IMG/VR virus record: IMGVR_UViG_2534681833_000008 | DNA from: a virus | Taxonomy: Duplodnaviria > Heunggongvirae > Uroviricota > Caudoviricetes | Strand: one strand, 5' to 3' | DNA: 28,381 nt | In this document: piece after piece, positions 18,167-20,740 of the stretch | Layout: each line of letters starts with the position of its first letter | Numbering within the stretch: position 1 is the stretch's first letter | Program-made: the position numbers and the translations under genes | The notes under the pieces: model-generated | What the model saw: only the letters and a program-made list of their open reading frames with translations | The model's database searches: none | Told to the model about the DNA's origin: nothing

Positions 18167-18183
18167 ATTATTAGAGCAATATT
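18167..18183 (-). promoter_or_regulatory. C1 operator-like site, inverted relative to the 18115 site
   Basis: Reverse complement ATTGCTCTAATAATTCC, 14/17 match; the two sites flank the hairpin CGTGATG-agtgtac-CATCACG followed by TTTT. Confidence 0.55.
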
Positions 18184-18883
18184 ATTCTGATTCTCGCTCA
18201 AAAAACGAGCTAATAAGGGGAAGCCAATCCTCTGACACTTCGCGAGGTCGCGGTTTGCCGTGGAAAAAGATTATTCGGCAGTCCTTTGGTAATGCCCCAT
18301 TCCCCCTGGAGTAACGCGCGCTCGCATATTTTGAACCAGGTTCCACAACATCGGCCTTGTAACTTACAAACCATCCTGGATACAGATCCTGAAATGCTGG
18401 TGTATCATCGCCCATAACCTTCCGTAAGAACCCCTGATCACCCCAGCACTCAGTAGTGACACAACGAGAAATCCAACCTTCCGGATCTTGCCAGAATGAA
18501 CTCCAGATATGCGCTTTTACACTATTTGGTATCCACAGGGCACCGCTACCACGATATTGTGGATGGTAAAAATCCCTAAGCATGGTGAAGCTGGTTGGTG
18601 GATTCTCAAGGATTGGGCGTATATCACCGGCAATAACTGTGTCCAAATCCAGATAGAACAGATCATCTGTTATATCCGGTCGGAACAACTCGATTTTCGC
18701 CCACCAGCCACGGCACTTTTGCCACTGGTTGATCAATGGGACAACTTTGACGCCAGGTACATGTAAACGCTTCAGGTCTGTCAGGCAAATAATTTCATAG
18801 CCTTTTGGCAGTTGATTAACCAGCCACTGCACATCGGAAGCGTTATAGTCACCACCAGAGCGAAAAACTAAAGCAATCTTCAT
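18182..18883 (-). CDS. Hypothetical protein, 233 aa, possible GT-A-like glycosyltransferase (DxD motif)
   Basis: ATG overlaps the ppp stop (ATGA); contains LDLDT after a Rossmann-like N-terminal strand (KIALVF). Function is inferred from motif only. Confidence 0.45.
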
Positions 18884-19554
18884 GCTGCACCATCACCTTT
18901 CACTTTCATCAATGTCAGGTTTCCGCAAAATACGGCACCAGTGTCGATATACTGCTGATTCCAGAATGTCTTCGGGCTTTTCACCGGAGTGTGACCAAAG
19001 ATAAAACGATCTGCGCCCGAAATTTCGCCACCAATATCATCCATCGAATCACTGATACGCTCGCGCGCCCAGACAACGTTGAAAAGCGGCACCTCCTTAC
19101 CGAATTGGTATTCATTATCCGGATAGTCGGCATGGGCTATAACGATAGTTTCTTGCCCGGTGTTCAACTCAATGATATAGGGCAGACGCTTTACCAGCTC
19201 CACCAGCGCCCAGGCTAATATTTCCTGATCAGTGTCCAGCATGAAGAACCATTGTCCGCCATTCATTAGCCAGTTATTCACGTTGCCATCTGGACTTAAC
19301 GCATCAATCATCAGCCGCTCATGGTTCCCCATCACTGCCCTGAACCAGGGCATCTGCAATAGTTCCAGACATTCGACATTTTCAGTACCGCGATCGATAA
19401 GGTCGCCGACCGATATCAGTAAATCCTGCGCCGGGTCAAAATCCACACGATGGAGTTCGGACATCAGTCTGGTGTAGCAACCATGCAGATCACCAACAAC
19501 CCAGACATTCCTGTATTTGGTACCGTCGATACGGTGATAAATTGTGGGTGCCAT
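18880..19554 (-). CDS. ppp: Ser/Thr protein phosphatase, lambda PPase (NinI) family
   Basis: Metallophosphatase motifs GDLHG, GDLIDRG, GNHE; strong similarity to lambda PPase as remembered. Start chosen at the ATG overlapping the upstream stop (ATGA); the track ORF starts 18 nt further upstream at 19572. Confidence 0.9.
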
Positions 19555-20180
19555 CATGTATTCTTCAGCCATTCTTTAAGAGTCATCTGCGGAATACCTC
19601 CCATTTTCCCGCATGAAACAACGTCAATCTGTTCACGCGCAGACTGGAATAACAAAGGCAGGTGACTTAGATTTTTTGGCGTGCCGCCGGAGTGAACGCG
19701 TAGTTCTTGCGTAGCGTCAACGCCCACCAGGGCTACATGTTTGAATCCGATATGGAAAGCCAGGTTCAGAGCACCATATGCACTATTGCCGCTGGCAATT
19801 TCATTCTCATCTTCGCAAAGGCCGAAATGTGCGGACCAGCGCCACGCCCACCACTCGGGAGAATTCGTATTTTTTGGCTCTGTGCCGCGTTCAGCCACAC
19901 GACGGAAGCACAGAATGCCGTCTCTGACTTCACGTTCTTTAACATCGGGTAGTGCCATGCAATAACAAACACCACGGCGACGGCGGCCACGACCAACGCG
20001 CCGCATATTGTCTGGCGATGGATCAAGTGTGAAAAAATAAGAAGCGCGGTTAAGCCAGTCGATAGCCCCATTGACCGCTATAATCGGCACTCCGCGCGGC
20101 GCAACAAAGTTTGCGGCGCTTGGGCCACTGCCGACGATAATAACGCGATCACTGCCTCTAAATTTATTCTTGGGAAACAT
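19554..20180 (-). CDS. Rossmann-fold protein with GSGPS motif, resembling GT42 sialyltransferase-like / DUF115 transferases (paralog B)
   Basis: IIVGSGPS ... IIAVNG ... [25 protein letters not shown] parallels the Cst-II-type pattern (GNGPS ... CN ... G-x-AxxLGYKEIYLSGID) from memory; AGGAG SD upstream. Confidence 0.5.
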
Positions 20181-20740
20181 TGAATTGCACTGCTCCTACT
20201 TGCATTCAAAATATGTAAATCTGCGTGTTTTTTGCGGGTATCCAGGAACTGCTGTTGCCATTTTGAAATAGACACCTGCGTTGGATTCCGTAGGGCTTGA
20301 GGGTGCGCGCCATGCCAATGAAGGCCGTTTTGCAGAGAACAGTCATAGCCGACTAATACCACTACTTCAGCCCCTGATTCAGCAGCCAGACTGATAGCCT
20401 GCGCGCCGCTATTTACCCCTTCCGCCGGTCTACAATATCGCCTGTACTCCAACGAAAATGATTTCGCCGCCGCCAGGTTGGCTGTCACTTTGCGGAACCT
20501 CCCTCCCGGTATGGTGGAACCGTATTGCTTCCACCATGACAAATCACCGGCGTATAAGGCATAAATGTCATCGAACATCAGCCAGGAATTGTTAACCGCA
20601 ATGATTGAACAGCCAGTTTTTTCTATAGCAGCACAGTCCTCACGAGTGAGTGACGGACCGCTACCGACACAAAAAACAGTCCTAGTCGCCCTGGGTGGTA
20701 TGTTCATTCTCAGCTGCAAATTCAGCCTCCAGGCGAGCAT
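20078..20740 (-). CDS. Rossmann-fold protein with GSGPS motif (paralog A of the 19554-20180 gene)
   Basis: FCVGSGPS ... IIAVNN ... VNSGAQAISLAAESGAEVVVLVGYD; clear paralogy with the downstream gene. The 3' end overlaps it by 103 nt; the true start may be the internal ATG (MNIPP) at 20707. Confidence 0.5.
   Translation of the reverse strand: MLAWRLNLQLRMNIPPRATRTVFCVGSGPSLTREDCAAIEKTGCSIIAVNNSWLMFDDIYALYAGDLSWWKQYGSTIPGGRFRKVTANLAAAKSFSLEYRRYCRPAEGVNSGAQAISLAAESGAEVVVLVGYDCSLQNGLHWHGAHPQALRNPTQVSISKWQQQFLDTRKKHADLHILNASRSSAIQCFPRINLEAVIALLSSAVAQAPQTLLRRAECRL

Follow-up and report, generated by a model that had tools for sequence, protein, structure and literature searches.

Which molecule would be glycosylated by the sugar-transferase-like enzymes of this phage is the question raised by positions 18182–20740 of the window, the whole 28,381 nt stretch of DNA analysed here. 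The window comes from a P1-type phage (98–99% identity to P1), P1 being among the phages most heavily used in genetics.

The block of transferase genes and its control regions

Inspection of the span showed it to be the canonical pmgQ-ppp-pmgP-pmgO block of P1. A further transferase gene, dbn, lies apart from it, about 6 kb away. Every open reading frame was verified at its coordinates, all on the minus strand:

pmgO, 20078..20740, minus strand: 220 aa; small DUF115/MptE-like protein (Maf/GT42-like fold), putative CMP-ulosonic-acid glycosyltransferase
pmgP, 19554..20180, minus strand: 208 aa; second DUF115-like putative transferase
ppp, 18880..19572, minus strand: 230 aa; lambda-type Ser/Thr protein phosphatase, between pmgP and pmgQ
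pmgQ, 18182..18883, minus strand: 233 aa; predicted GT8-like retaining GT-A hexosyltransferase
dbn, 26678..27676, minus strand: 332 aa; predicted GT4-like (GT-B type) glycosyltransferase

The cluster of motif-bearing reading frames proposed earlier from the letters alone (the sequence-only reading) is real, and its VGSGPS and DLD motifs were confirmed. The same reading held such a density of transferases to be unusual for a P1-type genome, which is wrong: these genes are P1's own, and the block was present at no less than 95% identity in 19 of the 21 matching phage records. Glycosyltransferase names are already attached to them in RefSeq and PHROGs.

The placement of the genes in an early operon stood only in part. 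A search of the window for the C1-operator pattern returned eight matches (0.13 expected), and the following elements are relevant to the expression of the block:

pmgN, 20682..20879, minus strand: small ORF upstream, sharing a transcription unit with pmgO according to the P1 annotation
Two C1-operator-like sites (OpmgRb and OpmgRa of P1), 18115..18180, no strand assigned: between pmgQ and pmgR, from the pattern search and the P1 annotation
C1 operator O26/Op82, 21788..21804, plus strand: in the divergent pmgL / gene 26 control region

Judged by homology to the annotated P1 genome, the block follows a late promoter as well as C1-controlled operators. In P1 the control region containing O26/Op82 includes this promoter, LPpmgL, from which transcription enters pmgL-pmgM-pmgN-pmgO-pmgP-ppp-pmgQ; its assignment in the window was made purely by homology (98.4% identity to P1). 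The P1 cassette is located downstream of LPpmgL and has pmgM/N on one side and the head-completion gene pmgR on the other. The small pmgN gene was found in P1-like loci only.

Families and folds of the four enzymes

The motifs on which the family assignments bear are located as follows:

PmgO G-S-G-P-S nucleotide-binding motif, residues 26–30, 20651..20665, minus strand
PmgP G-S-G-P-S motif, residues 17–21, 20118..20132, minus strand
PmgQ DxD motif D79-L80-D81 (DLD), 18641..18649, minus strand: invariant in 29 homologues and aligned with the DxD of GT8 structures
Dbn EX7E motif, E248...E256, 26909..26935, minus strand: window sequence VTHPESLGLTVLEAAMCGA

The full VGSGPS motif spans residues 25–30 of PmgO and 16–21 of PmgP. 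Residues G28, P29 and S30 were conserved at 90% or more in the PmgO family, as were S18, G19, P20 and S21 in the PmgP family. A profile search aligned the PmgO motif with the GNGPS of CstII, and the G-x-G-P-S and S/N-G...G-x-D motifs were collinear with those of that enzyme. PmgO probably starts at Met12. In a pairwise BLASTP comparison the match between PmgO and PmgP was confined to the N-terminal motif (E 0.002), while alignment of the two family profiles with hhalign covered 162 columns (probability 98.2%, E 4e-14); the tandem paralogy noticed earlier is genuine yet distant. A natural PmgO-PmgP fusion protein (P0044) was also found. PmgP, for which 327 homologues were found, was more widespread than any other cassette member.

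The window proteins fell below the 34.6-bit cut-off of Pfam family PF01973 (PmgO 23.2 bits, PmgP 20.9 bits); all 30 PmgO relatives matched this family at E ≤0.01 (best 1.7e-11). Both proteins are assigned the characteristic DUF115/MptE-like fold. The best structural neighbour was a protein glycosyltransferase. Maf ranked top, with 162 aligned residues, and the viral fold search in BFVD returned uncharacterised DUF115-like phage proteins and nothing else. The motif collinearity with CstII suggests PmgO and PmgP to be putative CMP-ulosonic-acid transferases, with the invariant His141 and His143 of PmgO and His173 of PmgP as candidate catalytic bases. Against the WaaZ Kdo III model TIGR04437 (cut-off 200 bits) PmgP scored 11.9 bits, and PmgO showed no match. 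Weak WaaZ_KDO_III matches, far under the cut-off, were seen for eight of 30 PmgP relatives (best E 0.006), for which the only other NCBIfam match was a chance-level transporter; in precomputed Pfam data the PmgO-PmgP fusion faintly matched PF27901 (WaaZ_KDO_III). Membership of WaaZ is not claimed for PmgO or PmgP: the hhalign probability against E. coli WaaZ was weak for both families, at 10–13%.

The AF2 model of PmgQ (pLDDT 94.7) was compared with the PDB using Foldseek. Nearly all of the top 50 matches were GT8 structures (probability 1.0, TM 0.5–0.62), including 6mw5 (5.7e-9), glycogenin, GlyE, LgtC and WbbM, which upholds the earlier suggestion of a DxD-containing GT-A-like protein. The PmgQ family profile matched the Skp1 alpha-galactosyltransferase 6mw5 (E 7e-7), GlyE (0.007) and glycogenin (0.009) in the PDB. 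Residues K63, D79, D81, G148, D149, H208, G209, P211 and P213 were invariant in 29 homologues; the DxD, the GDQ loop and the C-terminal HGxPxP, all invariant, aligned with the corresponding motifs of 6mw5 and glycogenin. By its modelled fold and family alignment, PmgQ is a GT8-type GT-A enzyme with all catalytic motifs intact. It matched no Pfam family at E ≤1, Glyco_transf_8 included, and in sequence searches of the PDB GT8 was reached solely via the family profile. When the four proteins were searched singly against PDB sequences, nothing above noise came back; family profiles were required for PDB matches.

In the Dbn family (44 members) residues H246, E248, E256 and G261 were invariant. 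Dbn matched Pfam Glycos_transf_1 at E 1.5e-5, its 25.1 bits falling short of the 26.4-bit cut-off; 9–10 of the 44 relatives weakly matched GT1-group models, and the family profile matched PDB 8xsg, a putative glycosyltransferase. Dbn is predicted to be a GT4-like, EX7E-bearing enzyme that belongs to the cassette as its fourth member, though detached from the rest. None of PmgO, PmgP, PmgQ and Dbn contains a transmembrane-like segment (no 19-residue window reaching a Kyte-Doolittle score of 1.6). The sugar-transferase character ascribed earlier to the three genes of the span and to dbn is credible.

Distribution and genomic context of the cassette

An initial scan of IMG/VR yielded just near-identical P1-like contigs, and the scan was repeated with a distant relative placed first. 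The cassette was found in 45 loci, in unrelated phages of Gram-negative hosts; all the hosts identified were Gram-negative. PmgQ adjoined PmgP in 45 loci, the sole exceptions being three short or cut contigs, and PmgO was present in most. A new result is the mobility of this cassette, which consists of PmgP-PmgQ, mostly accompanied by PmgO and in some cases by Dbn or a sugar methyltransferase. Additional GT-A genes also joined the cassette in relatives, as did methyltransferases of the sugar type, a TylF fusion among them.

That the four transferase genes belong together, as suspected from the sequence, was borne out by both their co-occurrence and their joint loss. Phage EP_H11 contains a contiguous PmgO-PmgP-Dbn-PmgQ array (Dbn E 4e-95), a Serratia island contains all four genes, and in Buttiauxella, Serratia and locus L128 Dbn lies no more than 5.6 kb from the cassette. 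In the P1-like phage D6 none of the four transferases is present, whereas ppp, pmgM, pmgR and pmgS are retained. The pmgO, pmgP and pmgQ genes of P1, plus the detached dbn, are predicted to form one accessory glycosylation cassette. The phosphatase gene lying between them does not belong to it. Ppp matched Metallophos PF00149 (E 9e-16, 59.3 bits, cut-off 21.5) and NF008516 (E 3e-81, under the equivalog cut-off); by these profile matches it is a lambda/PrpA-type Ser/Thr phosphatase of the PPP family. The ppp gene was missing from every non-P1 cassette and from the P1-like loci L118, L125, L127, L128 and L136, and its persistence in D6 without the transferases marks it as a passenger. A role for Ppp as regulator of the module was rejected on the same phyletic grounds.

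In ten HK97-like loci (L095, L102, L103, L112, L113, L116, L121, L124, L126 and L129) the cassette came right behind the major capsid gene and ahead of the genes for head-tail connectors. In eight loci it lay within the lysis cassette, or between the lysis cassette and terminase. Transferase genes within a structural or late operon are the arrangement expected of a virion-glycosylation module. In two bacterial islands, on Pseudescherichia and Serratia chromosomes, PmgO was co-oriented with Big_1/invasin-type genes. These contexts (capsid-connector, lysis-terminase, Big_1 neighbours), together with LPpmgL, favour a late-made protein as the target.

Candidate acceptors and comparison with known systems

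The sequence-only reading had proposed DNA or virion glycosylation as an anti-restriction device, or modification of the host surface. Glycosylation of DNA has the precedent of the T-even phages, in which phage glycosyltransferases classically act on DNA, and two of the loci have nucleotide-metabolism genes close to the cassette. Ordinary restriction enzymes do, however, cut the DNA of P1, and the phage also packages host DNA, both of which count against it. Further, no hydroxymethylase or base-hypermodification gene accompanied the cassette in the loci examined, none of the three folds (GT8 and DUF115 included) is known from DNA glycosyltransferases, and the cassette also occurs in bacterial adhesin islands. 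Finally, published mutants with pmgO, pmgP, pmgQ, dbn or ppp deleted in frame plated normally and behaved as wild type towards EcoA, EcoB and EcoK restriction (PMC9024508), leaving type I restriction unchanged. DNA glycosylation for anti-restriction is thus largely refuted, with hardly any probability left to it.

The cassette probably builds a short sugar chain on protein or on lipopolysaccharide. The favoured explanation, a tentative one, is that a virion or surface protein is glycosylated late and in the cytoplasm, with CMP-Kdo as a possible donor. We infer that the four soluble cytoplasmic enzymes would be made in lytic growth, alongside head and other late genes. PmgO and PmgP, as minimal Maf/WaaZ-like DUF115 enzymes, would take the ulosonic acid that they transfer from a CMP-activated sugar; CMP-Kdo is the sole donor of this kind in E. 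coli K-12. CMP-Kdo is proposed because the hosts are Gram-negative and because Maf enzymes expressed in E. coli can use it for O-glycosylation of Ser/Thr (PMC11339370). PmgQ (GT8, Mn-dependent, retaining) and Dbn (GT4) would add hexoses from UDP-sugars, and in relatives a TylF-type methyltransferase may tailor the glycan. The acceptor would most likely be Ser/Thr of a late-made protein: a virion surface protein in phages, a Big_1 adhesin-like protein in the bacterial islands. The outcome would be a glycan coat dispensable in the laboratory and useful in nature, for example in virion stability, shielding or adhesion; the viability of the knockouts is as a decoration would predict.

Several observations speak against glycosylation of the virion. 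No report of a P1 virion glycan was found: recent cryo-EM papers on the P1 head and tail contain no 'glycos-', 'glycan' or 'extra density' wording (nor, for the tail, 'sugar'), the 2022 paper on the P1 virion proteome contains nothing matching 'glycos-' or 'post-translational', and literature searches on pmgO/P/Q, on DUF115 with phage and on virion or capsid glycosylation revealed no functional study of these genes. Ser/Thr-rich or extended C-termini were absent from the cassette-adjacent capsid proteins. No Big_1 protein was found in the window, and neither the Big_1 proteins nor the two downstream neighbour proteins (L002, 213 aa; L003, 192 aa) had matches in it. In addition, PmgO and PmgP of the window score under the PF01973 cut-off; two loci adjoin ribonucleotide reductase genes, not structural genes; and lysis-adjacent and post-capsid sites commonly receive unrelated cargo genes. 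Lastly, Kdo-transferase-like, GT8 and GT4 enzymes are exactly the set that builds the lipopolysaccharide core as well.

This last point leads to the main rival, remodelling of the lipopolysaccharide core, which is rather unlikely. PmgO and PmgP would then be WaaZ-like and add extra Kdo from CMP-Kdo to Kdo2-lipid A or the inner core, while PmgQ and Dbn would add hexoses as WaaO/WaaJ (GT8) and WaaG/WaaB (GT4) do. Lipopolysaccharide newly made in the lytic phase would lack or mask the terminal glucose bound by P1, so that fewer progeny would be lost on debris and vesicles, or other lipopolysaccharide-binding phages would be excluded. The shared enzyme families of the waa cluster, the exclusively Gram-negative hosts, the frequent proximity of lysis genes and the faint WaaZ_KDO_III matches of the fusion and of the PmgP relatives, which matched no other NCBIfam model bar the transporter, are consistent with it. 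So is the truncation of the outer core upon waaZ overexpression (Frirdich 2003, as cited in PMC12856342). However, the WaaZ scores mentioned above are low, the closest structural neighbour is a protein glycosyltransferase, and none of the ~45 contexts lay within a waa, lipopolysaccharide or capsule cluster. Moreover, expression late in the lytic cycle would leave little new lipopolysaccharide to reach the surface, the cassette is kept from Bacteroidota to Alphaproteobacteria despite their differing cores, and ten loci are inside head operons.

Some other cytoplasmic target, neither virion protein nor lipopolysaccharide, is quite improbable; it would be a host protein (in takeover or counter-defence), a small molecule or a nucleotide. 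Ribonucleotide reductase or exonuclease genes adjoin the cassette in Sinomicrobium (L100) and XacN1, a lone PmgP-PmgQ pair lies amid metabolic genes in L108, the P1 cassette has further non-structural enzymes on its flanks (Ppp, Pap, which is HAD/PNKP-like, and PmgM, a VRR-NUC protein), and one Dbn relative weakly matched the Pfam family 'GT4 in conflict systems'. The majority of contexts are nevertheless structural or late, the deletions gave no phenotype in laboratory hosts, and three to four enzymes plus a methyltransferase suggest an oligosaccharide rather than a single inactivating sugar. It is very improbable that PmgO and PmgP are not glycosyltransferases at all, but enzymes of the MptE or thiamine-pyrophosphokinase type whose substrate would be a pterin, a vitamin or another alcohol, with a metabolic linkage to PmgQ and Dbn. 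The top rank of Maf and the positions of the CstII motifs argue against this, as do the obligate linkage with two bona fide glycosyltransferase families and with sugar methyltransferases and the absence of folate or thiamine genes near the cassette.

Glycosylation of a late-made protein may be stated more boldly: P1, along with numerous phages of Gram-negative hosts (HK97-like, lambdoid and jumbo), would O-glycosylate surface proteins of the virion in the cytoplasm with a short Kdo-containing, sometimes O-methylated glycan, using host CMP-Kdo and a portable, minimal Maf/WaaZ-like pair plus GT8/GT4 hexosyltransferases, and bacteria would have borrowed the cassette for Big_1 adhesins. In this full form the proposal is unlikely. 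If true, it would be the first virion glycosylation system for Gram-negative phages and the first natural protein 'Kdo-ylation'. Any glycosylation of virions by the cassette would matter for the stability of the particle, for how the immune system recognises therapeutic phages and for interactions with receptors, and would provide a compact cytoplasmic protein-glycosylation toolkit functional in E. coli. If the lipopolysaccharide core is rewritten instead, this would be a new receptor-masking strategy directed at P1's own receptor. Should neither hold, what is gained is a corrected annotation, since both 'alpha-2,3-sialyltransferase' and 'morphogenetic protein' are misleading.

The first of these names, used by RefSeq, derives from the GT42 sialyltransferases CstI and CstII, for which the profile E-values are just 0.1–0.7; as the host makes no CMP-sialic acid, the name is almost certainly wrong on the donor sugar. 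The Maf (motility-associated factor, DUF115/PF01973) flagellin O-glycosyltransferases are ~600 aa long and contain flanking acceptor-binding domains, whereas PmgO and PmgP are paired, bare catalytic domains of ~200 aa, below the Pfam cut-off and without linkage to genes for flagella or nonulosonic-acid biosynthesis. WaaZ, the Kdo III transferase for the lipopolysaccharide core of E. coli K-12, shares an N-terminal SGP[ST]...IIAVNG and central G-x-D motifs with PmgP relatives, and its donor is CMP-Kdo, the sole CMP-sugar in these hosts; the window PmgP is not an equivalog of it, and none of the cassette copies is located within a waa cluster. PmgQ has the fold, DxD, GDQ loop and C-terminal His-Gly-x-Pro-x-Pro metal/UDP motif of GT8 enzymes (glycogenin, Skp1 alpha-GalT, GlyE, LgtC, WaaO/WaaJ), but it is shorter (233 aa), with TM-scores of 0.5–0.6 and the lack of a Glyco_transf_8 match noted above.

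Phage-encoded glycosyltransferases also serve in defence or exclusion, as in the T-even DNA glucosyltransferases and in Gtr O-antigen modification. The T4 enzymes depend on hydroxymethylated bases, which are not made here. Gtr enzymes are integral membrane proteins expressed from prophages, while PmgO, PmgP, PmgQ and Dbn are soluble and lie behind C1 operators and a late promoter. Phage virion glycosylation has so far been shown in mycobacteriophages, and glycosylated P1 virions would extend it to Gram-negative phages. In the mycobacteriophages, as reportedly described by Freeman et al. in 2023, glycosyltransferase genes lie beside structural genes. The enzyme families and hosts differ, and the Ser/Thr-rich capsid tail has no counterpart here; the mycobacteriophage genes and the present cassette resemble each other in placing several cytoplasmic glycosyltransferases, dispensable for plaques, in a late structural operon.

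The P1 gene block and its surroundings

Nucleotide comparison showed positions 17800-21500 of the window to be 98.4-99.0% identical to phages P1, P7, RCS47 and SJ46, and positions 15849-28134 to be collinear with P1 at 98.5% identity. The span 18182-20740 is therefore the canonical P1 block; its genes, and dbn as placed by P1 annotation, are:

18182-18883, minus strand, pmgQ
18880-19572, minus strand, ppp
19554-20180, minus strand, pmgP
20078-20740, minus strand, pmgO
26678-27676, dbn, the 'GT-B enzyme' of the sequence-only reading

The transferase-like cluster seen in that reading is real and was rightly recognised, yet it consists of P1 genes already annotated as glycosyltransferases: RefSeq names pmgQ 'glycosyltransferase' and pmgO 'alpha-2,3-sialyltransferase' and remarks on dbn as a 'possible glycosyltransferase', and PHROGs annotates the block likewise. 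The suggestion that such density is unusual for a P1-type genome does not hold, the gene set being native to P1 itself. As annotated, the pmgO and pmgP frames overlap by 103 nt (20078-20180); judging by homologues, conservation in PmgO would stop near residue 203 and translation would begin near Met12.

Relative to P1, four single-base insertions were found (17739, 23859, 23873 and 25473). These frameshift pmgS and split gene 7 (ORFs 23485-23865 and 23955-24215) and gene 6 (ORFs 24989-25555 and 25464-26006), both essential tail genes in P1; they reflect homopolymer sequencing error or else mark a defective prophage. In 27676-28381, homology to P1 ban ends at 28134. A 158-aa C-terminal DnaB-like ORF (27676-28152) remains of it, followed by an unrelated 76-aa ORF (28149-28379), and this helicase gene appears truncated or replaced in the window. 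The stretch at ~9250-15850 is absent from P1 itself and matches the P1-like phage vB_EcoM-673R5, whose annotation gives a type I restriction-modification locus (hsdR, hsdM, hsdS) there; the insertion separates the pdcB/doc side from pap/pmgT.

Enzymes of a mobile transferase cassette

The sugar-transferase-like motifs described for the window proteins are present. The reading of PmgO and PmgP as paralogs was supported by their family profiles, whose alignment spans 162 columns (hhalign 98.2%, E 4e-14), although in pairwise comparison the likeness is limited to the N-terminal GSGPS region (E 0.002). All 30 PmgO relatives matched PF01973 (MptE-like / DUF115) in Pfam, the window PmgO and PmgP lying under its curated cut-off; the DUF115 fold is also found in pyrophosphokinases. 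A metagenomic protein of 376 aa, P0044 (locus L003, 10001-11131), is a natural single-chain PmgO-PmgP fusion, which suggests that the two work as a heterodimer. Downstream of it lie PmgQ and another GT-A-like gene.

No Pfam match was found for PmgQ. Its family profile matched GT8 enzymes in the PDB (6mw5, E 7e-7; glycogenin, 0.009), and the structure-based search proposed as a check on the transferase claim matched its model (pLDDT 94.7) to GT8 transferase structures at probability 1.0. The DxD, GDQ and H-G-x-P-x-P residues are invariant in the PmgQ family, as is the EX7E motif in the Dbn family, whose score lies slightly below the Glycos_transf_1 cut-off. No membrane-like segment was found in PmgO, PmgP, PmgQ or Dbn. 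Ppp is a lambda/PrpA-type phosphatase. The product of pap (16038-16544) matches the phosphatase domain of polynucleotide kinase-phosphatase (HAD_PNKP, 3e-11), and that of pmgM (20904-21482) a VRR-NUC nuclease domain with a score just under the cut-off. Counting Pap, PmgM and Ppp, the 'pmg' operon is a run of enzymes, not of morphogenetic proteins.

The ORFs of fetched loci were screened with HMMs of the PmgO, PmgP and PmgQ families, a Dbn model being added later. The sample grew from PmgP-like seed sequences and does not amount to a census. In it, PmgP adjoined PmgQ in 45 loci, with three short or truncated contigs as the sole exceptions, and most loci also carried PmgO. The named hosts are all Gram-negative (Enterobacterales, Pseudomonas, Xanthomonas, Stenotrophomonas, Alloalcanivorax, Zhongshania, Microbulbifer, Methylophilaceae, Ochrobactrum, Brevundimonas and one Bacteroidota genome). 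Dbn is a member of the transferase set: PmgO-PmgP-Dbn-PmgQ are contiguous in phage EP_H11, all four lie inside 10 kb in Serratia plymuthica, and Dbn is at most 5.6 kb from the cassette in Buttiauxella and an IMG/VR locus (L128). Phage D6 has P1-like virion genes, with pmgM-orf11-pmgR-pmgS directly adjacent; a search up to E 1 found none of PmgO, PmgP, PmgQ and Dbn in it, while ppp is retained at another place in its genome. Ppp lies between PmgP and PmgQ in a subset of P1-likes only, PmgO-PmgP-PmgQ being uninterrupted in other P1-like relatives. Adjacency across loci, Dbn linkage, co-absence from D6 and the distribution of Ppp therefore identify the transferases, dbn included, as one conserved, mobile accessory unit, with Ppp as a passenger. 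Of the genes noted in the sequence-only reading, PmgO, PmgP, PmgQ and the nearby Dbn thus stand as a unit, while Ppp, kept in D6 without the transferases, drops out; the mobile status of the cassette and this membership are part of what is added here.

Genomic contexts and candidate roles

In ten HK97-like loci the cassette follows TerL-portal-protease-major capsid and precedes connector or head-completion genes; in eight loci it lies within the lysis cassette, or between lysis genes and terminase. Sites after capsid genes or beside lysis genes also gather unrelated cargo genes. The P1 copy is placed between pmgM/N and pmgR, with the late promoter LPpmgL upstream and C1 operators around the block; deletion of pmgR leaves P1 heads and tails unjoined (PMC9024508). 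Ribonucleotide reductase genes were found near the cassette in two loci. Methyltransferase and extra GT-A genes are frequent additions, and in XacN1, a Xanthomonas jumbo phage, a TylF-type sugar O-methyltransferase is fused to PmgQ (ORF373; L105 7630-8946). Two ~1100-aa proteins follow ORF373, one with a weak PKD/Ig-like match. On chromosomal islands of Pseudescherichia and Serratia (L101 2241-15359; L107 1674-4115), the three cassette genes are interspersed among Big_1 / invasin-type genes, several without a signal peptide, and PmgO there shares its orientation with Big_1 or inverse-autotransporter adhesin genes.

DNA glycosylation, proposed earlier as an anti-restriction device, is an unlikely role for the cassette. 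With pmgO, pmgP, pmgQ, dbn and ppp deletions alike, plating is normal and the EcoA, EcoB and EcoK phenotypes are those of the wild type (PMC9024508), the five genes were scored non-essential by CRISPRi, and no base-modification genes accompanied the cassette in the loci examined, which largely excludes this reading. In P1 CRISPRi, knock-down of pmgN (20682-20879) scored as essential, yet its clean deletion is viable; knock-down of pmgO-pmgQ, downstream of pmgN, was harmless.

The cassette looks like machinery for a short heteroglycan, which two ulosonic-acid-type transferases and one or two hexosyltransferases, with optional methylation, might assemble in the cytoplasm late in infection. The late, structural contexts, together with the Big_1 islands and the Maf-like fold, tentatively favour a protein as acceptor, most likely one on the virion surface. 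The P1 virion structure and proteome papers searched report no virion glycan and contain no word matching glycos-, and capsids adjoining the cassette have no Ser/Thr-rich tails. The main rival, remodelling of the LPS core, appears doubtful. It would account for a weak but specific signal to WaaZ, the Kdo III transferase of the E. coli K-12 core, and for enzyme families that are those of the waa cluster; in addition, waaZ overexpression reportedly truncates the outer core, where the P1 receptor resides (Frirdich 2003, as cited in PMC12856342). However, the cassette proteins fall outside WaaZ itself, no cassette copy lay in an LPS locus among those examined, and late lytic expression leaves little time for a change of the cell surface.

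The testable hypothesis that results is glycosylation of the virion or of a protein, with Kdo as a possible sugar. CMP-Kdo is the sole CMP-activated sugar known from E. coli K-12. Since, in addition, Maf enzymes expressed in E. coli use CMP-Kdo for Ser/Thr O-glycosylation (PMC11339370), Kdo would be the simplest candidate for the donor sugar.
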